Positions 1,058 to 33,785 of a stretch of DNA of 64,000 nt are shown here, piece after piece (position 1 is the first letter of the stretch; every line of letters starts with the position of its first letter). The position numbers were made by a program, and so were the translations under genes. Under the pieces are notes generated by a model. It made no database searches. It was given only the letters and a program-made list of their open reading frames with translations, and was not told the origin of the DNA. The stretch comes from a virus, in the IMG/VR virus record IMGVR_UViG_3300025896_000028; one strand, given 5' to 3'.

Positions 1058-1069
1058 AAAAAGAAAAAC

Positions 1070-1675: not shown

Positions 1676-2064
1676 TGGGGATGAGAGCTAAATTTGCTGT
1701 ATTGATTGAAACTAATCAGTACGCTGGGAACTTTGAAAGAGAAATGTGTGCACATCTAACTGGTCACGTTGGTGATTGCGAAGTTGGTGACGAATTAATC
1801 GATGAAACTGTTGCAGAATTTTTCGATGATGTTATCGGAAATGAAGCTGATGATAATGGTACGTATAGACCAGTAGCGTTGGGTAACGATATCGATGGTG
1901 GTACCAATCAAGGTGTTGTGATTTTCTTTGATGAAGAACCAACACAGGAACACTTGGATATGATAAAAGAAAGACTTGGAACTTTCACATATACCAAAGG
2001 GTTAGAAATAAAAAGTGTGGAATTGATTGAATTTCATAGAAGCACGACTAAAAAAACTATTTAA
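1675..2064 (+). CDS. hypothetical protein, acidic
   Basis: Start overlaps upstream stop (ATGA-type coupling); no recognisable motif. Confidence 0.5.
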   Translation: MGMRAKFAVLIETNQYAGNFEREMCAHLTGHVGDCEVGDELIDETVAEFFDDVIGNEADDNGTYRPVALGNDIDGGTNQGVVIFFDEEPTQEHLDMIKERLGTFTYTKGLEIKSVELIEFHRSTTKKTI

Positions 2065-2065
2065 A

Positions 2066-2569
2066 ATGAAAAATACAAACGAAAAAACAACTGACGAATT
2101 CGTATTCTTTTGGAATGGAATCTACAGTCAGTGGTATTCGTCTAAGTTCAGCATTGCTGGAATCGAATATAATTGCTGTGAGCAATACATGATGGCGATG
2201 AAAGCATTGACATTCAACGACCAAGAGAGTCATGATGCTATCATGGCTGCCGCTAGACCAGTTGACCAAAAATCTTTGGGTCGTACAGTTAAAAACTTTA
2301 ACACAGACAAATGGAATGAAGTGTGTCGAGAATTTGTTTACCAAGGTAACTTGGCTAAATTCACACAAAATCCTAGTCTAAAGGTTGAGTTATTGAAAAC
2401 TGATGACAAAGAAATTGTTGAGGCTAGTCCATACGACAAGATTTGGGGTATTGGAATGGGTGTTGACCACAGAAACATCGAAGATAAAAGCAAATGGCAA
2501 GGAAAAAACTGGTTAGGTGAAGCCATTATGCGAGTAAGAGAAACTTTTAAAAAACAAGAAAATGATTAG
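2066..2569 (+). CDS. NADAR (YbiA/DUF1768) domain protein
   Basis: FFWNGIYSQWY..FSIAGIEYNCCEQYMMAMKA..ASPYDKIWGIGMG matches the NADAR family. Start re-set to the ATG at ~2066 (track starts at 2027). Confidence 0.7.
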   Translation: MKNTNEKTTDEFVFFWNGIYSQWYSSKFSIAGIEYNCCEQYMMAMKALTFNDQESHDAIMAAARPVDQKSLGRTVKNFNTDKWNEVCREFVYQGNLAKFTQNPSLKVELLKTDDKEIVEASPYDKIWGIGMGVDHRNIEDKSKWQGKNWLGEAIMRVRETFKKQEND

Positions 2570-3011
2570 ATATATCGATGGTGACCTAGTAAAGGATGCC
2601 GAAAATTACGAAGTAATTGCACATTGTTGCAACTGTTTTTGCACTATGGGTGCTGGTATTGCCCCGCAAATCAAACATAAATTCCCAGATGCTTACGCTG
2701 CTGACTGCAAGACAGTTCAAGGGGACATTAACAAGCTAGGTACTATTTCATATAGTGAAGCTACAAAACCGATTGTTGTTAACTTGTATGGCCAATATGA
2801 CTATACTGGAAGACGAAGTGGTCAGATGGATTTAGACTATGAAGCTTTACGTTCTGCGTTGAAGTTGATGAAAGCTAAATTCTCTGGTAAAACATTTGGT
2901 TTACCTAAGATTGGTGCTGGGTTAGCTGGTGGTGATTGGGCTACAATTGAAGCAATCATTGACGAAGAACTTCGTGGTGAGTATGTTACGATTGTAAACT
3001 ATGTACCGTAA
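2562..3011 (+). CDS. macro domain (ADP-ribose binding/processing) protein
   Basis: CNCFCTMGAGIAPQIK..VVNLYGQ.. pattern typical of MacroD/Appr-1-p processing domains; overlaps the upstream gene end. Confidence 0.7.
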   Translation: MIRYIDGDLVKDAENYEVIAHCCNCFCTMGAGIAPQIKHKFPDAYAADCKTVQGDINKLGTISYSEATKPIVVNLYGQYDYTGRRSGQMDLDYEALRSALKLMKAKFSGKTFGLPKIGAGLAGGDWATIEAIIDEELRGEYVTIVNYVP

Positions 3012-3787
3012 TGCACTACATAATACAACAAAATGTATTTAGAGAAACTAACTATGACATCATATTTGAAGCCTTAACCAAATTAGGTTTAGAGTATGAA
3101 GTCATAGAATGTTTACCTAACTCTGATAAGTTTGAATTTGTGACTGATAGAAAAGATGTATTTACATTCGGCTCTATTAGAATGGCTAAACTAGCAACTG
3201 AAAACGGTTGGGAACCTGGTTCTTTCTTTGGTGGAAACCACGATTACTCAATATACTCCGAACACTACAAAGAAAACTTATTGAACTACGATTGTGAAAT
3301 CAAAGAGTTTGAAGAAGAATTTGAATGGAACTACGGTGAAATAAAATTCATAAGACCATGCAAGGATTCAAAGTTGTTTACAGGACAAGTATTTACCAAA
3401 ACCAAATGGGATGATATGCTTGAGCAACGTAAACAAAATATAAACTACACCAAATTAACGGAACCACAACTAATTCAAATCGGTATACCGAAAACCATAT
3501 ACAAAGAAGCCAGAACGTGGATTGTTGATGGAAAGATTGTAACCAGTTCTTATTATCGTTTTGGTCAGTATGTTGCTTACGAAGAAAACGTTGAACCAGA
3601 GGGCTTAGAATTCGCTCAGAGAATGGTTGACTTGTATCAAGTTGCTGAGTGTTTTGTGATGGACATTTGCCTAACACCAGATGGTTGGAAGATAGTTGAA
3701 ATCAATTGCATTAATTGTTCTGGTTTTTACAAGGGTGACATGCAAAAGGTTTTGATAGCTTTGGAGAATAAATACAACCCAATATAA
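3011..3787 (+). CDS. ATP-grasp fold protein (phage DUF4343/R2K-like)
   Basis: C-terminal RTWIVDGKIV..YRF..FVMDICLTPDGWKIVEINCINCSGFY resembles ATP-grasp ligases common in phage NAD/ADP-ribose neighbourhoods. Confidence 0.55.
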   Translation: MHYIIQQNVFRETNYDIIFEALTKLGLEYEVIECLPNSDKFEFVTDRKDVFTFGSIRMAKLATENGWEPGSFFGGNHDYSIYSEHYKENLLNYDCEIKEFEEEFEWNYGEIKFIRPCKDSKLFTGQVFTKTKWDDMLEQRKQNINYTKLTEPQLIQIGIPKTIYKEARTWIVDGKIVTSSYYRFGQYVAYEENVEPEGLEFAQRMVDLYQVAECFVMDICLTPDGWKIVEINCINCSGFYKGDMQKVLIALENKYNPI

Positions 3788-3862
3788 TATTTTAGGTTTC
3801 TCTTGCTTTTTAATAAAAGTATTAGTACCTTTGTTAAATAACAATTTATAAAATTAACATTA

Positions 3863-4042
3863 ATGAATGAGCTTGTTAAAGTAGGTGTTGCCAACGAAGG
3901 TGAACAAACATTTCCACTAAGTGTCGTAAAAGAATGGCAACCAACTAACCTAACATATATTGGAAGTGCGGTATTCTTCAAAGTAGAAGATACATATTTT
4001 TCAATGAACACTTTAGATTTTAGAAACATTTTTGAATCATAA
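3863..4042 (+). CDS. small hypothetical protein (59 aa, below ORF-track cutoff)
   Basis: ATG about 30 nt downstream of a TAccTTTG promoter motif at ~3831; plus-strand ORF MNELVKVGVANEGEQ.. fills the gap. The minus-strand ORF 3727..4029 in the track is judged spurious. Confidence 0.4.
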   Translation: MNELVKVGVANEGEQTFPLSVVKEWQPTNLTYIGSAVFFKVEDTYFSMNTLDFRNIFES

Positions 4043-4044
4043 CT

Positions 4045-4488
4045 ATGAGTATAATTAAATCGATTCTAACGAATCACTTCGAGTACAAGATTACTAGAAA
4101 CTGGGACCGAACATTTTGGGCTTTTGATATTCATGGTACAATTCTTAAACCAAACTATACATTTGGTAGTACGCCAGATGAATTTTATCCAATGGCAAAA
4201 CAAACATTACAGTTCATCAGTCAACGACCAGACATTGTAATGTTCCTTTATACCTGTTCACACCCTAACGAGGTTGATGAGTATTTGGAATTGTTCAAAA
4301 AGAATGACATTCATTTTAAGTATGTGAATGAGAACCCAGAGGTTCCGACACAAACTAATGGATATGGATGTTACGATAAAAAACCTTACATGAATGTTTT
4401 GTTTGAGGACAAAGCTGGATTTGACCCAGAGAACGATTGGGGTTTGGTTTTAAATTTATTAACCGCTAACTATAATGGCAAGGATTAG
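4045..4488 (+). CDS. hypothetical protein
   Basis: ORF in operon context; no recognisable motif. Confidence 0.5.
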   Translation: MSIIKSILTNHFEYKITRNWDRTFWAFDIHGTILKPNYTFGSTPDEFYPMAKQTLQFISQRPDIVMFLYTCSHPNEVDEYLELFKKNDIHFKYVNENPEVPTQTNGYGCYDKKPYMNVLFEDKAGFDPENDWGLVLNLLTANYNGKD

Positions 4489-4837
4489 TGATTTATTAAC
4501 GTACAACTCAAATAAATTTGATAACATGAAGATTAAAACTGCTTCCGATGAAACAGTTTTATTATCTAGTAGTGAAGTCAAAGAAATTCTAACCAAATAT
4601 CTAAACGATGAGTTAGACTTTTTCGCAAAAGGTATCACAAAAGAAACGAAATCAGCGTTGACTGAAAGAGTTAACTTTAGACTTAAACAAATTGAAAGTA
4701 GCCTTGTTAGACATGTTGATGATAAAATAAACGGTATAACGGAAAAAATAGTTTCTTTGTCTACGAATAGAGTTATTGAGGAAGAAGTAAACAGACGGGT
4801 TGAGGCTCGTTTGAAAAAAATAAAAGATTCACTTTAA
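4475..4837 (+). CDS. hypothetical coiled-coil protein
   Basis: Overlapping start; charged heptad-like sequence. Confidence 0.5.
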   Translation: MARISDLLTYNSNKFDNMKIKTASDETVLLSSSEVKEILTKYLNDELDFFAKGITKETKSALTERVNFRLKQIESSLVRHVDDKINGITEKIVSLSTNRVIEEEVNRRVEARLKKIKDSL

Positions 4838-4847
4838 AAGTAAAAAT

Positions 4848-5147
4848 ATGAAAACAAAATTATTCATGACAGTATTTGTGCTGTTATTATTGACTGGATG
4901 TGCTGATGTGGCACATATACAATTCCTTGACCCTAACCAAGAAATCTATGGTTTCTGGGGTGGTGTTTGGCACGGTATGATTATGTTCCCAGCATTTATC
5001 TGTAGTCTTTTCTCAGATAACATTGCTATCTACGCTATAAACAATAACGGTTTCTGGTATAACTTCGGTTATGTTGGTGGGTTAGGTATTATAATCAAGG
5101 GTATCAAAATCTTTTTTGCTGGTTTAAGAAGTTTAAACAATAGATAA
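4848..5147 (+). CDS. small membrane/lipoprotein
   Basis: Signal peptide with lipobox-like LLLLTGC; hydrophobic segments. Confidence 0.5.
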   Translation: MKTKLFMTVFVLLLLTGCADVAHIQFLDPNQEIYGFWGGVWHGMIMFPAFICSLFSDNIAIYAINNNGFWYNFGYVGGLGIIIKGIKIFFAGLRSLNNR

Positions 5148-5905
5148 TGAAAAAGAAAATCGTAATTTTTAGTGGTGCTGGTTTAGATAGAGAGTCGGGT
5201 GTATTAACATTCCGTGACTGTAAAGATGGCCTTTGGAATAACCACAAAATCGAAGATGTTGCTACACCAGAAGGATGGGCTAAAGACCGAAGTAAAGTTC
5301 TAGATTTTTATAATGAAAGAAGAAGACAAATGCCAGAAGTTGTACCTAATGATGCACATATTGGTTTAGTTGAATTAGAAAAAGAATTTGATGTAATACA
5401 CGTTACACAGAATGTAAGTGACTTATTGGAAAGAGCTGGGGCGACAAACATTATTCACTTGCATGGTGAGTTGACCAAAGCTAGAACAAGCTTCGCAATG
5501 AATAACCCTAATGTTGTTGCATCACAACACGTATATGATATTGGTTATGATGATATTAATTTGGGTGATTTAGATGCAGAATATGAATCTCAATTAAGAC
5601 CACATATTGTATGGTTTAGTGAATATCCATTTGGGGTTGATAAAGCAAATCAAGCATTTAGAGATGCTGATGTTGTTTTGATTATAGGTACAAGTCTTCA
5701 AATTAGTTATACCATTGGATTTTTTGGGTTAACAAAATTAGAGACTCCTATTATCTATATTGACCCAGAACCAAGTCATGACTTGGATTATACTTATCGA
5801 GAATTAAAAGTTGAATATATAACCAAGACAGCAGTTGAAGGTGTAACACAAGTAGTAAATAGATTATTAACACAAGCAATCGGAGACGATAAAAACGACA
5901 AATAA
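5147..5905 (+). CDS. Sir2-family protein lacking zinc-binding cysteines (SirTM-like)
   Basis: N-terminal VIFSGAGLDRESGVLTFRD Rossmann motif of sirtuins; no CxxC..CxxC module. Confidence 0.7.
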   Translation: MKKKIVIFSGAGLDRESGVLTFRDCKDGLWNNHKIEDVATPEGWAKDRSKVLDFYNERRRQMPEVVPNDAHIGLVELEKEFDVIHVTQNVSDLLERAGATNIIHLHGELTKARTSFAMNNPNVVASQHVYDIGYDDINLGDLDAEYESQLRPHIVWFSEYPFGVDKANQAFRDADVVLIIGTSLQISYTIGFFGLTKLETPIIYIDPEPSHDLDYTYRELKVEYITKTAVEGVTQVVNRLLTQAIGDDKNDK

Positions 5906-5906
5906 G

Positions 5907-6260
5907 ATGCATTATTTTGTAGAAGGAACAATTAGACACATTGGTGAAGTACAGACATTTGGTGATAAATTCAAAAAAAGAGAATTTATCCTTGAAACTG
6001 ATGAAGCTTACCCAGAAAAATTAAAGTTAGATTTCATTAATGACAATGTAGATGCCTTGGATACCTTTATGGTAAACGAAGTTGTTACAGTTGCGTTTGT
6101 GGTTAAGGGTAGTGAATATCAAGGTAAGCACTACACCAATTTACGAGCAATAGCAATTTGTGAAGTTATTGACGAAAGAGCAGCAAAAGAATTCGCTAAA
6201 GCGAAAAAAGATAACAAAAGAGTTCAGCAATTGCTTGACTCCGTTAAAGTGAAAAAATAA
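5907..6260 (+). CDS. DUF3127 family protein
   Basis: GEVQTFGDKFKKREFILETDEAYPEKLKLDF..VAFVVKGSEYQGKHYTNLRA matches the Bacteroidota DUF3127 pattern. Confidence 0.6.
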   Translation: MHYFVEGTIRHIGEVQTFGDKFKKREFILETDEAYPEKLKLDFINDNVDALDTFMVNEVVTVAFVVKGSEYQGKHYTNLRAIAICEVIDERAAKEFAKAKKDNKRVQQLLDSVKVKK

Positions 6261-6535
6261 TGAAAAAAATAATATCTATCCTAATTTTAGGGTTATTTAT
6301 ATCTTGCAATAAGCCAAGTGATAAATATGTAGATTCACCAACACGTTTTGTAATTACTGGAATGCAAGGTGATAATAGTTTACAGCAAATGTCAATTTAT
6401 GAAGTAGAAGTAATTGATGGTAATTACTTTTCACATAGAGATGGGAACAACTTATCTTTTAGGTTTACAGATTCAGTTAACAAATTTAAGTTAGGTGATA
6501 TTATTAATTTCGAAAGAAAAAACATCATAGAATAA
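6260..6535 (+). CDS. lipoprotein
   Basis: Signal peptide ILILGLFISC (lipobox). Confidence 0.5.
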   Translation: MKKIISILILGLFISCNKPSDKYVDSPTRFVITGMQGDNSLQQMSIYEVEVIDGNYFSHRDGNNLSFRFTDSVNKFKLGDIINFERKNIIE

Positions 6536-6891
6536 TGAGTGTATTAAAATTAGAGTTAAAAGAAGAACACGTAAAATTACTTAAACATTTACGTTGGAGT
6601 CTTAACCCTCAAAATTTCATTGTTGGAGTTTCTGAGGAAGATGAACCAGCACCATTTGGTGAGAATAACATATATGAGGCAATTGACCTTATTCTTAATG
6701 GTGTCCCAAAGGAATTCGACCCGTTTAACACTGAAGAAATTCCTCAGTATTCTGATGAACAAAAAGCTGAGTGGGATAAATTATATTCTGAATTGCCGAT
6801 GGCATTGGATATTATTTTATATCGAGGTAGCTTTGAGTTAGGTAATTATAAAACTAAATTCCACGATAGAGTGTGGAAAAAAACAAACTAA
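6535..6891 (+). CDS. hypothetical protein
   Basis: ORF in operon context; no recognisable motif. Confidence 0.5.
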   Translation: MSVLKLELKEEHVKLLKHLRWSLNPQNFIVGVSEEDEPAPFGENNIYEAIDLILNGVPKEFDPFNTEEIPQYSDEQKAEWDKLYSELPMALDIILYRGSFELGNYKTKFHDRVWKKTN

Positions 6892-7221
6892 AATGAAAAC
6901 ATTAAAATTAATTGGTTATTTTCTAGCGGCATTGCTAGTGTTATTTATCATCAAAGGTATGTTCTTTGGAATATTCCTATTCACTATTGTATTGAAATAC
7001 ATACTGATAGCTGCTGTCGTTGCTGGAGTTCTTTATTTGTTTAATCGAAAAGGTAATAAATAGTAAATGATTTTTCTTTATTATTTTCTTGGGTTGATAG
7101 TCTTTATACATGTTGTAAGAGGACTATCTTATGCAATACATAAGATTATCTTATTCAACAAATATTTAAAGAAAGTTAAAAGAGAACTAGTAAATTATTT
7201 CAAAAAACATAAATAAATATT

Positions 7222-7251
7222 TGTTTATTCAAAATTTTTTATGTACCTTTG
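7222..7251 (+). promoter_or_regulatory. Bacteroidota-type sigma-A promoter (TTTG-N20-TACCTTTG)
   Basis: tttgtttattcaaaattttttatgTACCTTTG lies 16 nt upstream of the ATG at 7268. Confidence 0.6.
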
Positions 7252-7267
7252 TTAAAAATAAATAACT

Positions 7268-8260
7268 ATGAATGATTCAGTATTAGTAGCATTAGATGGT
7301 AGAGAAGATTTAGCGAATAACGTTATTGATTTTATCAATAACAATTCAAAGATAAAAGAGAAAGTAAAGCTAGACATAATCAACAGTCAGAAATTTTCTG
7401 ATGGTGAGTTATGTGTGGATTTCGAAACATCAATTAGAGGCAAGCGAGTATATATTCTATCTAGTCCTAACAATTCAGATGAAATCATAAAGTTAAACCT
7501 AGCGATAGATGCCGCCAAACGTGCAGCTGCTAGAGAGATTATTCCAATCTTACCTTATTTTCCATACGCTCGTCAAGACAAGAAAGACCAATCACGTGGA
7601 CCTATCGGTGCCAAGGTTATGGTTGAAATGATTGAGCATCGTGGAGCAACAGGTGTTATCACATTTGATTTACATGCTGACCAAATCCAAGGGTTTTTCA
7701 ATATCCCAGTTACACACTTAGAAGGTAAAAACGTATTTGATTCATACATCGCTTCGATATATGATGAAGACACTATTCTTTGTGGACCAGATGCTGGTTC
7801 TGGTAAACGTGTTAAACGTATGAAAGACCAATTATCTAACTACCACGACATTTCAATCAATTATGTAATGTTGGATAAGACTCGTAAACAAGCCAACGTT
7901 ATTGACGATATGGTAATCATTGGTGATGTTAGTGGTAAGAACGTAATCATCTTGGATGATATGGTTGATACTGCTGGAACACTTTGCAAAGCCGCTGAAG
8001 TTATTATGGAAGCTGGTGCTAAAAGTGTAAGAGCAATCATTAGTCATGGTATCTGTTCTGGTCCAGCTTTGGCTCGTATTGAAAATTCAGTTCTAACTGA
8101 ATTGGTTATTAGTGATTCCTTAAGAAAACCAACAGATTACAATGGTATCTTTGGTAATGATAAAATCAACGTGATTAGCATGTCAAAACAAATAGGTTTA
8201 GCTGTTAGTGCTATCAATAGTAAAACAAGCTACGAAGGACTTAAAAAAGAAAGATTCTAA
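7268..8260 (+). CDS. ribose-phosphate pyrophosphokinase (PRPP synthetase) homolog; possibly an ADP-ribose pyrophosphokinase (Adps-type)
   Basis: KFSDGE, DLHADQIQGFFNIPV and PRPP-binding loop VIILDDMVDTAGT are Prs-family hallmarks. Confidence 0.85.
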   Translation: MNDSVLVALDGREDLANNVIDFINNNSKIKEKVKLDIINSQKFSDGELCVDFETSIRGKRVYILSSPNNSDEIIKLNLAIDAAKRAAAREIIPILPYFPYARQDKKDQSRGPIGAKVMVEMIEHRGATGVITFDLHADQIQGFFNIPVTHLEGKNVFDSYIASIYDEDTILCGPDAGSGKRVKRMKDQLSNYHDISINYVMLDKTRKQANVIDDMVIIGDVSGKNVIILDDMVDTAGTLCKAAEVIMEAGAKSVRAIISHGICSGPALARIENSVLTELVISDSLRKPTDYNGIFGNDKINVISMSKQIGLAVSAINSKTSYEGLKKERF

Positions 8261-8451
8261 TGGCTGACTTTAACTTAAACGAAAAAGAAGTGGAAACACT
8301 TGCAAAGCTTGAAGAAAGCGTGAATTTATTACACGGTAAAGTTGGTAAGGTGTCTTATATTTTTTCTCACACTGGTATCGGTGTTCATGTAAAAGTAAGA
8401 TTTGAAGACTACGGGATTGAAAAAGATATAACCGATTATGACTCATGGTAA
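8260..8451 (+). CDS. small hypothetical protein
   Basis: Coupled start (TAATG); no recognisable motif. Confidence 0.45.
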   Translation: MADFNLNEKEVETLAKLEESVNLLHGKVGKVSYIFSHTGIGVHVKVRFEDYGIEKDITDYDSW

Positions 8452-9095
8452 TGGAAAAAGGATATAAAATACTTCAGAAAGCTTTTGACACAGAATTCTT
8501 AGACTTTTTTAGTAGAGATTTTGAAACAGTTGCTTTGCAATGTAAAGACGAAAATGTTTTTAGAACCAAGAATGGTGATGTAAAACAAATACAGAATTGC
8601 CAAGGGTATCATTTGTTTATGCGTTTAGCTAAACACATAAAAAAAGTCTTGGGTTATGATGGTGAAGTTATTAACATGCAGTATTTTATCAAACATCCAG
8701 ATTACAAGATAACAGCCCCACATCAAGACGGTGCGTACTTTGACAACAATGATGATGATATTTTAACCTTTTGGATTCCTTTGCATGATGTTGATGTTTC
8801 GACTTCAACTATGTTCTATGCTGATTGGGATGGCAAACGAGAAATAATCAACCATGAAAATTGTGGTTCAAATGTAAGAACTAGAACTGGTAAGACTGGT
8901 ATGTCACAATATACATCCGAAATTCCATTGGAAGACTTTACACCAGTAAAGTTGAAGTATGGTGATTGTGTTGTCCATAATCAATTCTCAGTTCATTATT
9001 CAAACGAAAATTCAACAACAAAACCAAGAATAGCAATTACATGCATTCTTAAACTAAACAAAAATGGAGAATCCAAATTACCCACACAGATTTAG
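8445..9095 (+). CDS. 2OG-Fe(II)/phytanoyl-CoA dioxygenase-like oxygenase
   Basis: HQDGAYFD (HxD) and a downstream His in a jelly-roll-like context. Confidence 0.5.
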   Translation: MVMEKGYKILQKAFDTEFLDFFSRDFETVALQCKDENVFRTKNGDVKQIQNCQGYHLFMRLAKHIKKVLGYDGEVINMQYFIKHPDYKITAPHQDGAYFDNNDDDILTFWIPLHDVDVSTSTMFYADWDGKREIINHENCGSNVRTRTGKTGMSQYTSEIPLEDFTPVKLKYGDCVVHNQFSVHYSNENSTTKPRIAITCILKLNKNGESKLPTQI

Positions 9096-9318
9096 CTTCA
9101 CGTATTCCGACAACAATAGAAATCCTATTCAATGTACTGTACTATGTAAAGAAAAACCTAATTATATTGATTTGGAAGACTTGATTTACGTTAAGTTTAA
9201 TCATTACATAACTGAAAACAAATCAGTTAAAATTTCAAAAAACAACATTATTAAGTTTCTGAATAACAATGGTATAGAGTGTGTTAATAGAGCTTATTAC
9301 AAATCTAATAAAAAATAA
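9064..9318 (+). CDS. hypothetical protein
   Basis: ORF in operon context; no recognisable motif. Confidence 0.4.
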   Translation: MENPNYPHRFSFTYSDNNRNPIQCTVLCKEKPNYIDLEDLIYVKFNHYITENKSVKISKNNIIKFLNNNGIECVNRAYYKSNKK

Positions 9319-9319
9319 C

Positions 9320-10090
9320 ATGGGATTATCTTTAGGAGATAGAATGAAAGAATTCTACGAAAACAGAACAAAAACTTTTTTGAATAGAAGAACCATTACC
9401 ATCATTAGACTTGATGGGAAAGGATTCTCTAAATTCACTAAAAATTTAAACAAACCATTCGATGATGGATTCAGTGATGACATGGATGCAACAGCAATCT
9501 TTTTATGTGAGAACATTCAAGGTGCCAAGTTTGCTTATACACAATCTGACGAAATTAGCGTGGTGTTGTGCGACTATGATACACTTGAAACAAGTGCATG
9601 GTTCGACTATAGCGTACAAAAGATGACAAGTATTGCAGCCTCTTTGGCAACTGCTAAGTTCAACCAATTAAGACATTTAAGGTCAACAATGCAAGGTATG
9701 GAAGGGTTAGCTGAAAGCTTAAACAAACTAGCTTTCTTTGATGCTCGTGTATTCCAAGTTCCTACTGTTGATGAAATGGTTAACGCAATGATTTTCAGAC
9801 AGCAAGACTGTACTAGAAATAGTATTAGTATGGCAGCATCTGCTAACTTCTCTCACAAACTATTAGAGGGTAAATCTGGTAGTGATAAACAGGAAATGTT
9901 ATTTAACGAGAAGGGTATCAATTGGAATGACTATAAAACCAAGTATAAACGTGGTGTAGTTATCAAAAGAGTAGCTGATATAGACTATAGTGGTGAAGCA
10001 GCTGCTGTTAGACGTAACTGGGTACCATTAGAAACACCTATATTCACTAGTGATAGGGATTTTCTAATAAATCTTATGCCTAAATTGTAA
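9320..10090 (+). CDS. tRNA-His guanylyltransferase (Thg1)-like 3'-5' nucleotidyltransferase (TLP)
   Basis: IIRLDGKGFSKFT, YTQSDEISVVL and RQQDCTRNSI match Thg1/TLP catalytic motifs. Start set to the ATG at 9320 (track begins at 9281, overlapping the upstream gene). Confidence 0.8.
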   Translation: MGLSLGDRMKEFYENRTKTFLNRRTITIIRLDGKGFSKFTKNLNKPFDDGFSDDMDATAIFLCENIQGAKFAYTQSDEISVVLCDYDTLETSAWFDYSVQKMTSIAASLATAKFNQLRHLRSTMQGMEGLAESLNKLAFFDARVFQVPTVDEMVNAMIFRQQDCTRNSISMAASANFSHKLLEGKSGSDKQEMLFNEKGINWNDYKTKYKRGVVIKRVADIDYSGEAAAVRRNWVPLETPIFTSDRDFLINLMPKL

Positions 10091-10167
10091 ATAATTAGGT
10101 ATGAATGTTGCAAATATACAATTAAATTCGTATTTTTGTATAAAATAACAAGTTTTAAAATAATAAA

Positions 10168-11748
10168 ATGGATTTTAAAGAATTAACTACAGAACAAATT
10201 GACTATGCTAGGGGTATTTATCAAGATAAAACTTTATCATGGGATGATAGAATGAATATTTTGGTTAAATTCTTTGGTAAATCAGAAAGAACAGTAAGAA
10301 AATGGTGTTCAGAACGATTAAATTTCAAAGAAAAGACTGAAATCGAACCAGAACAGTACGTAAAAGCTAAAGCTAAGGTACATGATGGTACTAAAAAACG
10401 ATTTATCATCACTTGGGCACAGAATAACACACCAGTACATAAGGGTTTCCTTAAGAATATTGAAGCTTATGCTGAATATATCAATGCGGATGTCCACGTA
10501 ATTGCTGGTAGGTATAAAAACCCAACTAGTATATGGTCAAATGACCAAGAAAATGAAGAATTTTGGGCTGATGAAGTAGTAAAATACCTAGATGCCAATA
10601 GACATGACATACATAAGTATGTTTCTATCCTATCAGATATCAAGATACAAGCTACTGCGGTTAATCCTATGACTGGGTTACAAGCATTGAGTGGTGTTAA
10701 TTCATCTATCTTCGGTAGTCCAAAGGTACAAATGGAAATGATTCCAGTACTAGAGGGTAATAAGCCTAAGATTATGCTTACCACTGGTTCTATTACCAAG
10801 AAAAACTATACTGATTCTAAATCTGGTAAGACTGGTGAGTTTCACCACACGTTTGGGTTTGTTATTGTTGAAATCAAAGATGATGAAACATTCTTTGTTA
10901 GACAAGTAACTGCCGATGATAAAACAGGTAACTTTAGTGATTTATATTACAGAGTTGAAGGTGGTTCTATTAGTGGTTTAAACACTATAGCTGCTGCTGT
11001 TCTAGGTGATATTCACTACGGACACCATGACCAAGAAGTTCTTGATTCAACTATGGGATTGTTAGATTCATTAAAACCAAAACACGTGATTCTTCATGAT
11101 GTTTTTGATGGAAATTCTATCAGTCATCACGAAATGAAAGACCCTTTTATTCAATATGGTAAAGAAGTTGCTGGAACCAACGACTTGGGTAAAGAGATTG
11201 ATTTGATGTTAGATGGATTGGGTGCATTCGCTAAGTTCGATAACGTTGTGATTGTTAGAAGTAACCATGATGATTTCTTAGACCGTTGGTTAAAGAATGA
11301 AGATTGGAAGAAACAACCAACATACAAGAACTCAAGACTTTACATGAAAATGTCTGATATGTTGTTGGAACAATATGGCAATGACCCTTACAATGTGAAA
11401 GGTGTTATTCCATGTATCATAAACGAGAAATTCCCTAAGTTCATTACTCTTGGTAGAAGTGCCACATATAGAGTTAAAGATTGGGAGCTTGGACAACATG
11501 GTGATATTGGTTCAAACGGTAGCCGTGGTTCATTGTTACAATTCCGTAAATTGAACACCAAGATTATCGTAGGTCACTACCATAGTCCAGGAAGAAAAGA
11601 CGGAGCATTGGCAGTGGGAACATCAACCAAGTTAAGAGTTGGTTATAACAAAGGGGCCAGCACATGGTTACAATCACACGTGATTATCCATAACGATGGA
11701 AGGTCACAACACATAAACTTCATTAACGGAGAGTTTACAACATTTTAA
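10168..11748 (+). CDS. calcineurin-like metallophosphoesterase with long N-terminal extension
   Basis: Metallophosphoesterase motifs GDIHYGHHD, LHDVFDG, VRSNHDDF and GHYHSP. No Walker A motif. Confidence 0.7.
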   Translation: MDFKELTTEQIDYARGIYQDKTLSWDDRMNILVKFFGKSERTVRKWCSERLNFKEKTEIEPEQYVKAKAKVHDGTKKRFIITWAQNNTPVHKGFLKNIEAYAEYINADVHVIAGRYKNPTSIWSNDQENEEFWADEVVKYLDANRHDIHKYVSILSDIKIQATAVNPMTGLQALSGVNSSIFGSPKVQMEMIPVLEGNKPKIMLTTGSITKKNYTDSKSGKTGEFHHTFGFVIVEIKDDETFFVRQVTADDKTGNFSDLYYRVEGGSISGLNTIAAAVLGDIHYGHHDQEVLDSTMGLLDSLKPKHVILHDVFDGNSISHHEMKDPFIQYGKEVAGTNDLGKEIDLMLDGLGAFAKFDNVVIVRSNHDDFLDRWLKNEDWKKQPTYKNSRLYMKMSDMLLEQYGNDPYNVKGVIPCIINEKFPKFITLGRSATYRVKDWELGQHGDIGSNGSRGSLLQFRKLNTKIIVGHYHSPGRKDGALAVGTSTKLRVGYNKGASTWLQSHVIIHNDGRSQHINFINGEFTTF

Positions 11749-28553: not shown

Positions 28554-28841
28554 TTGCAAAAACACTTGCATATTAAATAAAAAGGTAGTACCTTTGTAAT
28601 ATAATTACGCATAGAAAGATAAACAAGTAAGTGCCATACAGCTATGGAGACAAAATATGGGAAGTGAAAGACCCCATACCTTACAACACAACAAGAAGTG
28701 TTATGTTTGTTGAGTATGATAATGAAAGGGTAGTCAGAATAACTAAAGTATTTTTGCAAGAGGAAATAGTTATAGGGGTTCAACTCCCCCATACGCCAAG
28801 TGCTGGGGTATGAGACAGATTTATCCCAATCTTGATGGATG

Positions 28842-28935
28842 TGTGATTAACGGAGAAGCTTTGGATGGAAGTTGGGTTCGAGTCCCAAGGAAGGTCATGG
28901 CTGATAGCTTAGCGGCTTGTAGAGGTTCGAATCCT
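28842..28935 (+). tRNA. tRNA-like element (~94 nt, isotype unresolved)
   Basis: Perfect 7-bp acceptor ggagaag/cttctcc; T-arm agagg-ttcgaat-cctct. Contains an internal hairpin ttggg-ttcgagt-cccaa whose loop would present CGA. D-region is non-canonical. Confidence 0.35.
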
Positions 28936-29374
28936 CTCTTCTCCACGCTACTTTAGTCAGTTTATGAACTGGCACTTGCAGTGGGATTCTGCACATGATG
29001 ATTTTTTTGTTCGAGGTTAACAGATAGTGGAACCACCATTAATGCCAGTAAGGTCTGGCGTGTGACACAAGGCTTAGCGGCTGGGAGTGTAATCAAAACC
29101 AATTAGACTTGGTATGTCTATCCACTATTAGTCAATTACAAATGGCGTATGTTAATTAAGAGGTAGCACTGGCAACTATGCCGTAAATAGTAGGGAGTAC
29201 AAGTTCCTAAAGAGATGAAGCAGATGCAATATTCTCGTGCATGTACGCTACTCACCGATTTGTATAGGTGACAAGAATTAGATAAGTGGTGGAAAAGCTA
29301 AGCTGACTTCATTAGAAGTGGTGGTTCTGGGAGAATCTTAAATTAGTAGACACATAACGGCTTGGAGCAATTGG

Positions 29375-29445
29375 GGATAGCTCGTTAAACACTCAATCCG
29401 AGCGTGGCTAGCTTGGCGGTGCAAGTTCAAATCTTGCCTTATCTA
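29375..29445 (+). tRNA. tRNA-like element (~71 nt)
   Basis: T-arm gcaag-ttcaaat-cttgc; acceptor ggatagc/cttatct pairs at 6 of 7 positions; weak D-arm. Confidence 0.3.
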
Positions 29446-29482
29446 CTAAAACTGGTGACAGAGTAAGCTGAACACACATAGT

Positions 29483-29806
29483 ATGAAACTAAAAAGAGAA
29501 AATGTTTTCCCATGGGAAAATGCTATTAATGACCTTCTTTACGAAATGGAAGGTAATGAAGATTATTTAAAAGGTGCTGAAGATTTTTTAAAACTTTTAA
29601 ATGATAAAAGACTATTAAATAGTAAATATCAAATTGGCGATTTAGTCAAGATTAATTTCGGTGATACTGGAACAATTAAAAATTGTAAAGTCATAAAAGT
29701 ACATTTTACACATGATAAAATATTATATGATGTTACAGTTCAACTTAATGTGACACACATCACTAGACTATACAACATTGACAGCGTTTTCGTTGTCGGA
29801 AAATAA
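29483..29806 (+). CDS. hypothetical protein embedded in the RNA-gene region
   Basis: 107-aa ORF with an ATG start between tRNA-like elements. Confidence 0.45.
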   Translation: MKLKRENVFPWENAINDLLYEMEGNEDYLKGAEDFLKLLNDKRLLNSKYQIGDLVKINFGDTGTIKNCKVIKVHFTHDKILYDVTVQLNVTHITRLYNIDSVFVVGK

Positions 29807-30158
29807 AAACCGTTCGTAAGGAAGAATGATTGGAAGTTCTTTTGTTTGAAATGTTAGTTTTTAATTTGAGGGGTACGTAACCCGATAACAAGGTTCCTAG
29901 CATTAGAAAGAAAAGTATTCGCTGGTGGTCATAAGCCAGAGATTGTGGGTTCGAGTCCCATCCTTACCACAAGTCGCTTTGATGTTCCACTATGGAGAGC
30001 AGTTTGGATAGTTATGAAACTGGTAGCAGAATAGAGGTTTTAAAAGTTTAACCATAATAAAGCACGGCTTATTCCCAAAGAAAGGGGTTTCCTAGCCTAA
30101 TACAGAAACAAAAATAACATGAGGGTGTGTTAACCGAGGCTAAAGGTAGCACCCAAAT

Positions 30159-30362
30159 GGTTAGATGGCAGAATGGAATTGCTAATTAACAAGGTTAAGT
30201 AATGGGTTGCCGATGAGATGAGTTAGTGGACAAGTCGTGTAAACAGGTGTAACATTCATCAACCCAATAAAAGTCGTAATAATAATAAAACCTTATGTCC
30301 CAGTCAAATGGTGTCGACTAAGCGACTATAATTACACACAGGTTCGATTCCTGTTCTAACCA
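30159..30362 (+). tRNA. tRNA-like element with a ~130-nt insertion between D-arm and T-arm (candidate intron-containing tRNA)
   Basis: Perfect acceptor ggttaga/tctaacc; U8; canonical D-arm gcag-aatggaa-ttgc; candidate anticodon stem aatta/taatt flanking the insertion; T-arm acagg-ttcgatt-cctgt; ends ..ACCA. Confidence 0.35.
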
Positions 30363-30594
30363 CGAAGCCTGTTCGAGAGGTAAATCTAAGCGTAATCCTC
30401 TGACGTATAAGGTGCTTAGCTGATTGAGAAGCAGTCTTGGACAATGTGTCTGAAAATATCTTGACTATTCGGAAAGACGAAGATTACTACTTGACATGAG
30501 GCGTTAGCGACACCGAGAGTAGGGTAACAAAGAAAGACGCTCCGTGATGCTAATGATTCGGATATATGTTACTCGTTGCTGGTAGTAATCAAAT

Positions 30595-30668
30595 GGGAGT
30601 ATAGTACAATAGTATAGTATAAAGCGGCTGTAGCTGCGAGAACACGGGTTAGAGTCCCGTTACTTCCA
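30595..30668 (+). tRNA. tRNA-like element (74 nt), anticodon arm non-canonical
   Basis: Acceptor gggagta/tacttcc (7 bp including one GU); D-stem gtac/gtat; T-arm acggg-ttagagt-cccgt; discriminator A. The anticodon position is occupied by a gcggc-tgta-gctgc tetraloop hairpin. Confidence 0.4.
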
Positions 30669-30781
30669 CAAGAAATCCAACGGTTAAGCCCTATGGTCAC
30701 TGTACACAAACTATGGTAATTGGCAATGACGATGTGCACTCTTCATACTGCAATGGTTGACACTAGGAAAGACTAGAAACT

Positions 30782-30880
30782 GCGAGAGTGGCGAAGTTGG
30801 TAAACGCTAAGGTCTTTAGCCCGAAGTACAAGGGAACAACTAGGGACGTGGTGTCGGTGGTTCGAGTCCACCCTCTCGCA
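30782..30880 (+). tRNA. tRNA-like element (~99 nt), possibly type II or intron-containing
   Basis: Perfect acceptor gcgagag/ctctcgc; 3-bp D-stem gcg/cgc with an 11-nt loop; T-arm ggtgg-ttcgagt-ccacc; discriminator A. 48 nt lie between the D-arm and T-arm. Confidence 0.45.
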
Positions 30881-30977
30881 CAAAATTGGGGAATAGCAAC
30901 ATGAAGGTCGGCAAACTTTCAGACGGTTATAATCCTTTCTATCACGTTTAGCTTTGCCGAGCGACATGGTGATAGTT

Positions 30978-31048
30978 GATTCATTAGTGGAGTGGAACCA
31001 CGGGGGGCGTTGAGCCCGCAGACACTGGTTCGAATCCAGTATGAGTTT
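30978..31048 (+). tRNA. tRNA-like element (~71 nt)
   Basis: Acceptor gattcat/atgagtt (2 GU pairs); D-arm gtgg-agtggaa-ccac; T-arm actgg-ttcgaat-ccagt; weak anticodon stem with loop ttgagcc (possible GAG). Confidence 0.35.
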
Positions 31049-31156
31049 CTAGGTTATACTATTAAAGCGACATTGGTTGAGTAGTCCAGTGAGGGCACAC
31101 ATTAACAGTTTTAGCGAAAGGCTAAGGTGATAGACCACCATATAGTATAACCGAAT

Positions 31157-31255
31157 ATATAGCTAGCTCAGTGGTAGAGTGCCGAAATGGGAGCACATCG
31201 GAAGATGCAGTACCAATCGCTTGCGGAGATGGGGGTTCGATTCCCTCGCTATGTA
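31157..31255 (+). tRNA. tRNA-like element (~99 nt)
   Basis: Acceptor atatagc/gctatgt; D-arm gctc-agtggta-gagt; T-arm ggggg-ttcgatt-ccctc; 49 nt lie between the D-arm and T-arm. Confidence 0.45.
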
Positions 31256-31272
31256 CTAAAAAAGAATACAAT

Positions 31273-31968
31273 ATGAAGATAGTAGCACTAGGTGATACAC
31301 ATGGTCGTGTATTATGGGAAGAAATCGTGAAAAAAAATAAGGATGCTGATAAAATTATCTTCATAGGTGACTATTTTGATACTCATTACGATATAACTAC
31401 TGACCAACAGATAGAAAACTTCACAAAAATTTTAGAATTCAAGAAAAATAACATGGAACAAGTAGTTTTACTTCTTGGTAACCATGATTTTCACTATTTA
31501 AAAGGTGCTGGTGAGAAATATTCTGGTCATGATACCTTCAGAGCGTTAGATATTAACATAGTTTTGCAACCCGCAGTCGATTCTGGACTAATTCAGATGT
31601 GTTTTAAACATGACAAATACGTTTTTACACATGCTGGGGTAACAAAAACATGGTGTTTACGCAATGGAATCAAAACAAATGACCTAGAAAAGGAGATAAA
31701 TGATAAATTTACTACTGAATTAGATTCATTTTGCTTTGCATATGGACAAAATATGAGTAGAACAGGTAATGATGTGACTCAATCACCTATATGGGTGCGT
31801 ATTCCATCACTATTTGCTGATGCTATTGACGATATTACCTATGTAATAGGGCATACTACACAAGAAAGTATCGTAATTACTGATAAAATCATAGCTATAG
31901 ACACTATAGGTACTAGTGGGGAATACCTAGTAATAGAAAATAATGTACCCACACCAGAAAAACTTTAG
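31273..31968 (+). CDS. calcineurin-like metallophosphoesterase
   Basis: IVALGDTHGR, FIGDYFD and LLGNHDFHY motifs. The track's 5' extension (31171) overlaps the tRNA-like element, so the start is re-set to the ATG at ~31273. Confidence 0.7.
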   Translation: MKIVALGDTHGRVLWEEIVKKNKDADKIIFIGDYFDTHYDITTDQQIENFTKILEFKKNNMEQVVLLLGNHDFHYLKGAGEKYSGHDTFRALDINIVLQPAVDSGLIQMCFKHDKYVFTHAGVTKTWCLRNGIKTNDLEKEINDKFTTELDSFCFAYGQNMSRTGNDVTQSPIWVRIPSLFADAIDDITYVIGHTTQESIVITDKIIAIDTIGTSGEYLVIENNVPTPEKL

Positions 31969-32000
31969 GATATTAACTAAATTAATCGTACCTTTGCACT

Positions 32001-32444
32001 ATGAAATCAATAACGAAAAACAAACGAGCATATTTTGAATACAATATACTCGAAAAGCACATAGCTGGTATTCAACTACAAGGTTCCGAGGTCAAATCAA
32101 TAAAATCAAGCAAGGTTTCTATAGTGGAAGCCTATTGTTTTATTACCAATGATGAAATCTTTATCAAAGGAATGCACGTAACCGAACACAAAGAAGGTGG
32201 CAAGTACTACAACCATCAACCGCTAAGGGATAGAAAGCTTCTTATGAAAAAGAAAGAAATAATCAAGCTACGTGAAAGTATTTCACAAAAAGGCTTGACT
32301 ATTGTGCCATTGGAGATTATACTATCAAACACTGGATTCATTAAATTGGAAATTGGTCTTGCCAAAGGTAAGCACCTATACGACAAACGCAATAGTTTGA
32401 AAGAGAAAGACTTAAAAAGAGAAGTTGAAAGAAACTTAGATTAA
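32001..32444 (+). CDS. smpB: SsrA-binding protein SmpB homolog
   Basis: NKRAYFEYNILEKHIAGIQLQGSEVKSIK.., ..RDRKLLMKKKEI.., ..LEIGLAKGKHLYDKR.. align with bacterial SmpB. TAccTTTG motif at ~31990. Confidence 0.85.
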   Translation: MKSITKNKRAYFEYNILEKHIAGIQLQGSEVKSIKSSKVSIVEAYCFITNDEIFIKGMHVTEHKEGGKYYNHQPLRDRKLLMKKKEIIKLRESISQKGLTIVPLEIILSNTGFIKLEIGLAKGKHLYDKRNSLKEKDLKREVERNLD

Positions 32445-32537
32445 TTAGGATAATAAGAAGATTATTCCTACCGTCCTGTGGCTATACGAGGTTGTTGCCG
32501 AATTAAAAACCGACCTCACAAACTAATATTTAAAATT

Positions 32538-32831
32538 ATGACTGATATTTCAAAAAATACCGAATTGCAACAATCTTGTATAACCGCTGTTATGAACTGG
32601 ATTTCTTGCGATGAAAGATTACCAATGTGTTACAGTACAGGAAACTGGGACGGAAAAAAAAGCGATAATTTTATTGGTGAAACAATTACAGGAAAACAAT
32701 TTATAGGCTGTTGTTACGAGGGAACGATGGACGGTTCTAAATTCTTTGATTGGTATCAAATAGATGAATTGAATAACAATGATTGGACGATTAATGAAAC
32801 TGTTTCTCGTTGGTTACCAATTCCGTTTTAA
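32538..32831 (+). CDS. DUF551-like phage protein
   Basis: C-terminal ..WTINETVSRWLPIPF resembles the DUF551 tail W..W.PLP. Start re-set to the internal ATG (MTDISKN). Confidence 0.35.
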   Translation: MTDISKNTELQQSCITAVMNWISCDERLPMCYSTGNWDGKKSDNFIGETITGKQFIGCCYEGTMDGSKFFDWYQIDELNNNDWTINETVSRWLPIPF

Positions 32832-32900: not shown

Positions 32901-33785
32901 ATGAGACAATTTAAAATTGCACAGAAGTACACAAACACTGAGAACGATTCATTTAAACAATACTTAAAAGACATATCTGGTATTCCTATGTTCACACCAG
33001 AGGAAGAAAAGATATGCACTGAAAAAGCTAGTAAAGGTGATAGAAAAGCGATTGACGAATTGGTGCGTAGAAACCTACGTTTCGTAGTATCGGTTGCGAA
33101 GCAATATGCAACTGAAAATGTTCACTTGGAAGACTTGGTTAACGAAGGTAACATTGGGTTGGTATTGGCGGCTGAGAAGTTCACACCAGATATGGGTTAC
33201 AAATTTATTTCATACGCTGTATGGTGGGTTAGAAAAATCATAATGGAACATATTACCAAGTATGGTAAATTGGTTCGTATTCCAGCAAACAAGGTTAACA
33301 ACTTGTCTAAGTTGGATAAGTATATCCAAGAGTTGGAACAAAAAGCTGGTCGTAGTGTTGACATCAACGAAGTTATTAGTGAGTTCGGTAACGAGTTATC
33401 TAGCGAAGACTTTATGTTCTTAGATGTATTGAATACATACAACATGGATTCAATGGACCGAACAATTGGAACTGATGATGGTGGTAATGGTTCTATGTTA
33501 TCAGACTTAATCTCTGATGATTCAACATATAAAGCTACAGACCATTTATTGAATCAACAAGATATTCAATCAGAGATTGCGGCTAGCCTAGATATCTTGA
33601 AGCCAAGAGATAAACGTATCATGGAAGCATTGTTCGGGTTGAATGGGGCAATACCAATGACCTTGAAAGAGATTGGTGATGAAGTTGGTATCACACGTGA
33701 AATGGCTCGTCAAGTTAAAGAGAAATCACTTAAGAAATTAAGACAAAATGCTAGAGTAAATTTAGCTTACAATGAATTGAACTAA
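32901..33785 (+). CDS. sigma-70 family RNA polymerase sigma factor (regions 2-4)
   Basis: Region 2 RRNLRFVVSVAKQY, region 2.4 YAVWWVRKIIMEHI, region 4 HTH LKEIGDEVGITREMARQVKEKSLKKLR. Confidence 0.8.
   Translation: MRQFKIAQKYTNTENDSFKQYLKDISGIPMFTPEEEKICTEKASKGDRKAIDELVRRNLRFVVSVAKQYATENVHLEDLVNEGNIGLVLAAEKFTPDMGYKFISYAVWWVRKIIMEHITKYGKLVRIPANKVNNLSKLDKYIQELEQKAGRSVDINEVISEFGNELSSEDFMFLDVLNTYNMDSMDRTIGTDDGGNGSMLSDLISDDSTYKATDHLLNQQDIQSEIAASLDILKPRDKRIMEALFGLNGAIPMTLKEIGDEVGITREMARQVKEKSLKKLRQNARVNLAYNELN

Follow-up and report, generated by a model that had tools for sequence, protein, structure and literature searches.

A full-length phage-encoded SmpB without a recognizable tmRNA gene nearby

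In a 64,000-nucleotide stretch of viral DNA (IMG/VR record IMGVR_UViG_3300025896_000028; the whole stretch is hereafter "the window"), the gene at positions 32001–32444 encodes an SsrA-binding protein (SmpB), which is the protein half of the trans-translation pair. We found that this gene is a complete smpB under strong purifying selection. Phages with related SmpBs occur in two states, with SmpB and a transfer-messenger RNA (tmRNA) or with SmpB only, and as far as the available sequence shows, the window is in the second state. Trans-translation is the main bacterial ribosome-rescue pathway, and it affects the growth of several phages. Our preferred explanation, to which we assign a probability of about 0.45, is that this is a working SmpB that serves ribosome rescue during infection together with a tmRNA whose gene lies elsewhere, most probably in the host; we infer both the binding to the host's tmRNA and the benefit to the phage.

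The smpB gene and the phages that carry it

The open reading frame (ORF) matches the SmpB family of Pfam (PF01668) with E = 1.5e-52 and 177.8 bits (cut-off 27), across positions 1–141 of the 143 in the profile, and it scores above the cut-offs of two NCBIfam equivalogs, TIGR00086 (174.9 bits; cut-off 119.1) and NF003843 (178.2 bits; cut-off 130). Its sequence matches in the PDB are exclusively SmpB chains (E = 1e-34 to 1e-17), from Thermotoga maritima (7LJP, E = 1e-34), Aquifex (1P6V), Thermus (1J1H/4V8Q), and E. coli ribosome complexes. These alignments extend into the C-terminal tail, and the identity to the solved SmpB structures is 38–42%. An AlphaFold2 model of moderate confidence (mean pLDDT of 69) has strands at residues 13–124 and a helix at 129–146, which gives a beta-barrel followed by a C-terminal helix. 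When this model was compared to the PDB with Foldseek, the top 20 matches were all SmpB (probability 1.00, TM 0.54–0.72). An earlier note on this DNA, which was made from the letters alone, had called the gene an SmpB homolog, and the matches in Pfam, in both NCBIfam equivalogs, and in the PDB confirm that call.

The tail of SmpB, with its G-K-x-x-x-D-K-R motif and basic helix, is required for ribosome entry and tagging. The tail of the window's SmpB (...GLAKGKHLYDKRNSLKEKDLKREVERNLD) has the G-K...D-K-R motif and the basic helix, and its residues align with the tails of SmpB from T. maritima, A. aeolicus, and T. thermophilus. In an alignment of 34 members of the phage clade, the motif (as G-K-x-L-Y-D-K-R) and the basic helix are invariant or nearly so. 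G123, K124, D128, K129, R130, K134, K136, D137, and R140 are all present, and each is at least 88–100% conserved in the clade. We also compared 33 sequences from the phage clade to 79 bacterial SmpBs from GTDB genomes. Wherever a column reaches 80% conservation or more in the bacterial proteins, the phage clade has the identical residue, and the residues are also identical at the 31 columns that reach this level in both groups. The sole difference that was flagged is a glycine inserted at position 66 of the window's protein, where most bacterial SmpBs have a gap. The ratio of nonsynonymous to synonymous substitution rates (dN/dS) for smpB is 0.023 relative to the closest relative (dS = 0.25) and 0.05–0.09 relative to more distant ones. 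Overall, the tail, the conserved columns, and dN/dS show no sign of truncation, decay, or a changed active surface. The earlier note had allowed that the protein might be truncated or inactive and had singled out the tail for checking; the protein is neither truncated nor degenerate, and the tail is conserved.

This conservation bears on another suggestion in the earlier note, that the phage protein mimics SmpB and blocks trans-translation. As an inhibitor or decoy, it would sequester the host's tmRNA or occupy stalled ribosomes unproductively and so shut down the host's trans-translation. Excess SmpB, or SmpB with a mutated tail, can be dominant-negative. There is also a precedent for interference by phages with this pathway: mycobacteriophage DS6A encodes a tmRNA that consists of the tRNA-like domain only, and a similar molecule has an inhibitory effect on tmRNA, which may come from titration of SmpB (Hudson et al. 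2014, PMC4131195). However, loss of the tail or divergence would be expected of an inhibitor, whereas the D-K-R, the basic helix, and the glycine hinge of the tail are near-invariant, no position that is conserved in bacteria has changed, and dN/dS is 0.02–0.09 across the whole protein. We consider a decoy very unlikely.

As the earlier note supposed, the setting is a phage: the nearest relatives of the window are IMG/VR viral contigs of 206–369 kb. In IMGVR_UViG_3300033984_000473 (233 kb), SmpB is 99% identical to the window's and the DNA is 96–97% identical across the region. In a protein database, more than 120 protein clusters are 77–100% identical to the window's SmpB, on contigs of up to 368 kb, and phrog_6791 in PHROG already groups phage SmpBs (it is labelled "unknown function"). 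Among GenBank phages, tblastn finds only distant SmpBs (41–49% identity), in Lak megaphages, LR7565xx huge phages, and a few others, and blastn of the region finds no DNA match. The closest bacterial SmpBs are 50–55% identical, with metagenome-assembled genomes of Flavobacteriales and Chitinophagales ranking at the top. Because the identity to bacterial SmpBs is at most 50–55%, the window's SmpB belongs to an old phage lineage and is not a recent capture from a host. The carrier is a large (jumbo) phage, probably of a Bacteroidota host, to judge from a promoter motif (see below) and the nearest bacterial SmpBs.

In two loci of the clade (L027, 8513–8610, and L029, 8519–8602; L numbers are our labels for individual loci), a stop-terminated fragment with 31 codons of the 5' end of smpB lies 1.4 kb upstream of the intact gene. 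The fragment resembles other members of the clade more than it does the resident smpB, which suggests that the gene may have been replaced by recombination.

Phage SmpB was known before, and the window is a well-documented further example rather than a new kind of system. In 2012–2014, a set of 543 RefSeq phages yielded no smpB (PMC4131195), and the report that huge phages encode tmRNAs and SmpB followed in 2020 (Al-Shayeb et al., PMC7162821). That paper merely lists the tmRNA and SmpB genes, and our literature search found no dedicated study of phage-encoded SmpB beyond it. The SmpBs of those huge phages (Lak megaphages, LR7565xx) are also phage-encoded, in genomes of over 200 kb, and they are 43–47% identical to the window's by tblastn; unlike them, the window belongs to a different lineage with no close phage relative in GenBank, and we document the lack of a linked tmRNA for its whole clade. 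The window's protein shares the full-length domain, the beta-barrel with C-terminal helix, and the conserved residues of bacterial SmpBs (PF01668, TIGR00086; T. maritima 7LJP, A. aeolicus 1P6V, T. thermophilus 2CZJ/4V8Q). In contrast to them, it is encoded by a jumbo phage, is at most 55% identical, has no ssrA nearby, and is fixed beside a phage sigma gene. What we add is a large clade with apparently SmpB only and with a fixed linkage to the sigma factor; a neighbouring complete cassette that ARAGORN mostly misses; and an anticodon-less alanine-type tRNA mimic.

Searches for a tmRNA

The smpB gene starts 745 nt past the end (31255) of the last tRNA-like gene in an ORF-poor cluster of RNA genes, close to the 0.7 kb that the earlier note gave. 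The note had recognized no tmRNA in this cluster, and neither did ARAGORN, Rfam, or a scan for T-arms. With default settings, ARAGORN reports a tRNA-Gln (Table 1) as its only hit in the 64-kb window, and Rfam at the gathering score reports three tRNA hits and no tmRNA. With Rfam at E ≤ 10 for positions 28400–32100, the best tmRNA fragments score 12.5 and 10.7 bits, versus a gathering score of 47 for RF00023. Running ARAGORN with lowered thresholds and introns at 28–32 kb gave many calls of permuted tmRNAs with arbitrary tags; about 100 similar calls arise across the window, so we rejected these as noise. A regular-expression scan found nine T-arm-like hairpins in the whole window, all on the + strand and all at 28.87–31.25 kb, which excludes a tRNA-like domain elsewhere in the window. 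A permuted two-piece tmRNA is also ruled out because each T-arm has a partner for the 5' side of its acceptor upstream.

We then looked beyond the window. Its flanks (about 9 kb on the left and about 7 kb on the right, taken from contigs with identical genes) contain no tRNA, tmRNA, or T-arm. In 35 related loci of the clade, smpB is directly upstream of a sigma-70-family gene. Within 10 kb on either side of smpB in these sigma-linked loci, we found no tmRNA by ARAGORN, by Rfam RF00023, by a family-specific profile, or by a custom scan for an acceptor stem and T-arm that required a G3:U70 pair. The earlier note had named a canonical phage tmRNA nearby as the result that would reduce the case to an ordinary pair, and none turned up in the window, in its flanks, or around smpB in these 35 relatives.

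The acceptor/T-arm scan did identify one-piece tmRNAs of 391–414 nt (about 393 nt) in a group of more distant loci. These tmRNAs lie just downstream of smpB on the opposite strand, so that the two genes are convergent, at a distance of 0.45–1.5 kb. A profile for them matches 24 loci (E = 1e-77 to 1e-141; Table 1). Their 5' end is GGGAGUGACACGGAAUUGAC, their D-loop is GGAAUUGAC, and the tags that we read from the sequence (e.g., GNVLNKMALVGLVRQDELVNVA and GNILDKMSAIGLIRAEEVVVA) have 21–22 amino acids and end with V-A, not A-A. ARAGORN with default settings finds just two of the 24, and it calls a tmRNA in two of 80 SmpB loci (with 10-kb flanks). One of the 24 reaches 68 bits with Rfam RF00023 (gathering score 47), and so the negative Rfam results for the window's clade are meaningful.

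In a neighbour-joining tree (without support values), the tmRNA-linked and the sigma-linked phage SmpBs are adjacent and lie apart from Bacteroidota bacterial sequences. The two lineages also share an unusual tRNA-Ser-like RNA of 92–94 nt with a GGAAGGU motif. They differ in that the neighbouring lineage has a tmRNA where the window's clade has the sigma gene, and it shares no synteny with the window. The profile from the neighbouring lineage's tmRNAs has no match in the window or in any sigma-linked locus. An exact 25-base motif from these tmRNAs occurs in 73 IMG/VR contigs, none of which belongs to the window's clade (including five contigs of 206–369 kb); a divergent tmRNA would escape this exact search.

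If the window's phage has an ordinary complete pair, then its tmRNA gene would lie in the roughly 150 kb outside the region that we examined. In favor of this, the adjoining lineage in the tree has a canonical tmRNA close to smpB, relatives have extra RNA clusters far from smpB (as with L293), and both genes are reported in huge phages (PMC7162821). However, no tmRNA was found within 10 kb of smpB at any of the 35 clade loci, the exact motif is missing from the clade's contigs, long ones included, and the only RNA cluster in the window has no tmRNA. We consider a complete pair unlikely, although it retains a substantial chance.

Under our preferred explanation, that SmpB works with a tmRNA from elsewhere, the phage would express SmpB from a Bacteroidetes-type promoter of its own, and the mRNA would probably be leaderless. 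The protein would bind an alanyl-tmRNA whose gene is not close by, most probably that of the host, which is stable and abundant. Together with EF-Tu, SmpB would deliver the alanyl-tmRNA to ribosomes that are stalled on broken, truncated, or non-stop mRNAs. Truncated mRNAs are expected while host and phage nucleases act, and ribosome rescue would thereby be kept running while the phage reprograms the cell. In general, tmRNA is a stable RNA, SmpB has to match it in amount, and the features of the tRNA-like domain that SmpB contacts are conserved. Because tmRNA is stable and these features are conserved, pairing between SmpB and tmRNA from different species is plausible. The three scenarios in the earlier note are not equally likely, and the putative use of the host's tmRNA is the best supported of them.

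Several points weigh against this explanation. The 64 kb plus 16 kb of flanks in which we found no tmRNA amount to about 80 kb of a genome of about 233 kb, so a phage tmRNA could lie in the remaining 150 kb or so. Genomes of the clade have more than one RNA cluster, and in a relative, the cluster L293 lies 50 kb from SmpB. The binding to the host's tmRNA is conjectural, and only the type of host is predicted. Finally, the phage protein is about 50% identical to any bacterial SmpB, as an old phage lineage would be, and it could have co-evolved with a phage RNA.

That one large environmental clade appears to keep the protein half alone, under strong selection and linked to a sigma gene, while its neighbour keeps both halves suggests that phages actively manage ribosome rescue. 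This pattern also suggests that the supply of SmpB can become limiting during infection.

An anticodon-less tRNA-Ala-like RNA

One RNA in the cluster (element d in Table 1) has a cloverleaf fold in which the acceptor, D, and T arms are normal. Its acceptor stem is GGGAGUA/UACUUCC, with G3:U70 and A73. G3:U70 together with the discriminator A73 is the alanine identity set, and none of the other eight T-arm-bearing elements in the window has G3:U70. In place of the anticodon arm, element d has a 5-bp stem that is capped by a UGUA tetraloop. Because this capped stem replaces the anticodon loop, element d cannot decode.

Element d appears to be under constraint: over a stretch of 141 nt, it is 100% identical to its counterpart in L001, although the RNA region around it has diverged by about 4%, and copies in other relatives have compensatory changes. 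The copy in L035 (5638–5711; SmpB 71% identical) has five changes; among them are another tetraloop and, in the capped stem, a G-U pair instead of G-C. The copy in L334 (10478–10551) has compensatory changes in the D stem and in the capped stem. The variant copy in L293 (496–572), in L011's contig, has a longer stem capped by UUCG and a compensatory change in the acceptor stem. All of the known copies are in contigs of the window's clade type. Our search pattern matched about four of the more than 35 clade contigs, and this pattern is too narrow and specific to measure the distribution of element d.

These features raise the possibility that SmpB and element d form a minimal tag-less system for ribosome rescue or alanine capping. 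Besides the alanine-type acceptor, the intact D-arm and T-arm, and the tetraloop, this is favored by an acceptor stem (GGGAGUA/UACUUCC-A) that is identical to that of one of the neighbouring lineage's tmRNAs (from L070), by the conservation of the architecture through compensatory changes, and by the restriction of the known copies to the window's clade type. However, the acceptor stem and the T-arm are its only resemblance to those tmRNAs, so that it is no closer to tmRNA than to tRNA. Its D stem has 4 bp (GUAC/GUAU) and is of the tRNA type, and the tmRNA D-loop GGNUUCGAC and the P2 helix are absent. Rfam identifies it as a tRNA (40 bits, with the anticodon arm unaligned) and not as a tmRNA (gathering score 47 bits). 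On the tRNA-like domain of a tmRNA, SmpB sits where the retained stem of element d lies (as in the complexes 2CZJ and 1P6V), so the stem would take SmpB's position. Also, 74 nt leave no room for a tag reading frame, and without one, the ribosome would stay unreleased. The element was matched in few of the clade's contigs (subject to the narrow pattern), and other anticodon-less alanine-like RNAs occur in phage contigs without a nearby SmpB. A partnership between SmpB and an odd tRNA-like RNA, as the earlier note proposed, thus remains conceivable for element d alone, with its alanine-type acceptor and no anticodon loop; its lack of a tmRNA-type D-loop, and the failure to find it near SmpB in most relatives, count against it. 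Element d is a legitimate if weak candidate for a partner, and we give such a minimal system only a slim chance.

Comparable systems are known. Organellar tmRNAs that lack a coding sequence coexist with SmpB (PMC11915505, PMC3590771): in jakobid mitochondria and some plastids, SmpB is encoded in the nucleus (and imported, in the mitochondrial case) and is kept with at most a tag-less tRNA-like partner. Unlike element d, whose homology to tmRNA is unsupported, these RNAs are organellar and are homologous to tmRNA. The Bxz1-group mycobacteriophages, with their tmRNAs, and DS6A resemble the window in that the phage bears one half of the trans-translation pair, and the DS6A RNA is, like element d, a short alanine-type acceptor without a reading frame. 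However, those phages have the RNA without the protein, whereas here we have the protein, and for element d, whose D-arm is of the tRNA type, descent from tmRNA is not demonstrable.

A broader version of this idea is that the clade lost its tmRNA; that its SmpB pairs with RNAs of the element d type as a minimal, tag-less system that adds alanine or resolves stalls; and that anticodon-less mimics of tRNA-Ala are a widespread, unrecognised class of phage RNA that acts on translation or its quality control. We view this as improbable. Standard tRNA finders do not report the phages' anticodon-less alanine-type mimics.

Among the matches listed by our search, anticodon-less RNAs with G3:U70 also occur in unrelated phage contigs, in 68-nt (a family), 69-nt, 88-nt, and 79-nt forms (L249 5995–6062 and L254, L258, L261, L297, L302, L321; L363; L359; L290). 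The 68-nt family is recurrent and has a 4-bp stem with an AUUC loop. The 79-nt RNA has a tmRNA-type D-loop (GGUUUCGAC) and looks like a tmRNA that is reduced to its tRNA-like domain. We found no SmpB within the loci of these other RNAs.

Neighbouring genes, promoters, and other RNAs

Table 1. Coordinates of the main features, in the window unless a locus is named.
Feature	Coordinates	Strand	Remarks
smpB, full-length SsrA-binding protein, 147 aa	32001..32444	+	ATG start; C-terminal tail ...GKHLYDKRNSLKEKDLKREVERNLD
Sigma-70-family factor gene, conserved downstream neighbour	32901..33785	+	Pfam Sigma70 regions 1.2, 2, 4; PHROG sigma factor E 1e-52
Calcineurin-like metallophosphoesterase gene, frequent upstream neighbour	31273..31968	+	Pfam Metallophos E 9e-12; synteny
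117-aa ORF, no assigned function, inserted between smpB and sigma gene	32478..32831	+	Absent from L001
GTACCTTTG putative promoter box (Bacteroidetes-type -7 element TAnnTTTG)	31988..31996	+	Ends 5 nt before smpB ATG
RNA gene cluster, from GTACCTTTG box to last tRNA-like gene	28588..31255	+	One canonical tRNA, seven atypical tRNA-like RNAs, no tmRNA
Atypical tRNA-like RNAs of the cluster	28852-28945, 29280-29445, 29816-29969, 30159-30364, 30595-30668, 30782-30880, 31157-31255	+	
Element d, anticodon-less tRNA-Ala-like RNA, 74 nt	30595..30668	+	1.3 kb upstream of smpB; speculative alternative SmpB partner
Canonical tRNA-Gln	30978-31049	+	ARAGORN
SmpB-tmRNA cassette of neighbouring lineage, L074	SmpB 10001-10408; tmRNA 11273-11669	SmpB +; tmRNA -	
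Further tmRNA loci of neighbouring lineage (n = 23 besides L074)	L066, L070-L077, L079-L083, L085-L093, L095		

In most of the 35 sigma-linked loci, smpB is preceded by a gene for a calcineurin-like phosphoesterase. The window's copy of this gene also has weak matches to phosphatase and RNA-ligase-associated families in PHROG. Among relatives, SmpB is more conserved (71–85% identity) than the sigma factor (50–68%) or the phosphoesterase (51–65%). The gap between smpB and the sigma gene is 71 nt in the near-identical relative L001, versus 456 nt in the window. The RNA cluster is not a constant neighbour: L002 has just 219 nt between the genes for an AAA ATPase and the phosphoesterase, and most members of the clade have no RNA cluster near smpB.

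This arrangement could indicate a role for SmpB that does not involve tmRNA, such as a chaperone or stabiliser of the odd tRNA-like RNAs or a regulator of translation or transcription that is co-expressed with the sigma factor. The tight and conserved linkage to the sigma gene fits such a role, and in some members smpB is near a cluster of tRNA-like RNAs without normal anticodon arms. However, the full canonical set of residues is kept, including the tail that enters the ribosome; the RNA cluster is not near smpB in most of the clade; and no sequence feature sets the window's SmpB apart from rescue-competent SmpBs. We think that a tmRNA-independent role has a low probability.

The GTACCTTTG motif occurs 17 times in the window (0.45 copies are expected), 16 of them on the + strand. 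Examples are at 3825, 7243, 28588 (at the head of the RNA cluster), 31988, 45530, 57496, and 61959. The copies sit about 20 nt downstream of TTTG- or TTG-like elements. We take this combination to be a probable promoter, as it fits the -33/-7 consensus of Bacteroidetes. Because the box ends 5 nt before the ATG of smpB, we suggest that a separate promoter drives smpB and that the smpB mRNA is leaderless. An ATG begins 5 nt past the motif at five sites, which suggests leaderless genes. The sites have two types of upstream element, TTTG/TTG or TTAGGATATT (at smpB, 57496, and 63935), which hints at two classes of promoter.

Among the other RNAs of the cluster, the body of the tRNA-Gln is orthologous to tRNAs in L001 (4979–5050), L011 (3693–3765), and L013 (1471–1543). 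The anticodon has switched among these close relatives: L013 shares the window's TTG (Gln), but L001 has TGG (Pro) and L011 has TTT (Lys). The 94-nt RNA at 28852–28945 has two T-arm-like hairpins. The best reading of the first one is an anticodon arm whose loop is UUCGAGU (anticodon CGA). A long variable arm follows, as in a type-II tRNA-Ser-like RNA with an aberrant D-arm. This architecture and the GGAAGGU motif recur in the tmRNA-bearing lineage (L072, L079, L095).

The three RNAs that begin at 29280, 29816, and 30159 (154–206 nt) each have an acceptor stem and a T-arm, with a large insertion that replaces the anticodon arm; none of them matches Rfam or has G3:U70. ARAGORN called a "tRNA" at 29048–29968 with an 834-nt intron, which prompted the idea that 29006–29972 is one long tmRNA-like RNA, interrupted by a 107-aa ORF. 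Covariation with L011 rules this out: it pairs 29962–29968 with 29816–29822 and 29438–29444 with 29281–29287, so there are two separate tRNA-like RNAs of about 155–165 nt, neither with G3:U70. The 107-aa ORF (29483–29806) has no family match and is an insertion between two tRNA-like genes, as its flanks (29452 and 29805) are contiguous in L001, L011, and L013. A mini-tmRNA at 30159–30364 (204 nt) was another reading that we rejected, since this RNA has U3-A70, offers no plausible tag, and was found only in the window and in L001. Upstream of the tRNA-like gene at 29280, a 275-nt non-coding stretch (29006–29280) is 79% identical to L011 and L013 and has no T-arm or Rfam match; it may be another structured RNA.

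The last two atypical RNAs (30782–30880 and 31157–31255; also L011 3498–3596 and 3875–3973) are 99 nt long, and a structured insert of 37–39 nt replaces the anticodon arm. The first has a D-arm of the tRNA-Leu type and is nearly identical to the copy in L011 throughout. In the second, the tRNA body differs from L011 with compensatory changes, and the insert, CCGAAAUGGGA(G/A)CACAUCGGAAGAUGCAGUACCAAUCGCUUGCGG, is almost invariant. Immediately before the 5' ends of tRNA-like genes (window 30757–30781; L011 3060–3080 and 3467–3496), there is a repeated short hairpin motif, ACUAGGAAAGACUAG, with UUGAC in front of it; this motif may be a signal for processing or a promoter.

Farther from smpB, the Rfam motif DUF805b RNA (RF02914) scores just above the gathering score in L004 (10904–10937) and L010 (10896–10930), about 4.9 kb downstream of smpB. 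The left end of the window (about 1–9100) and L371 (1–10000) are dense in genes related to NAD and ADP-ribose: an NAMPT-type phosphoribosyltransferase, NUDIX, a gene similar to phosphoribosyl pyrophosphate (PRPP) synthetase, SIR2, Macro, and NADAR. An ADP-ribosyl glycohydrolase is encoded further to the right in the window, at about 61.9–62.7 kb. This gene set is similar to the modules of phages for NAD reconstitution or anti-defence.

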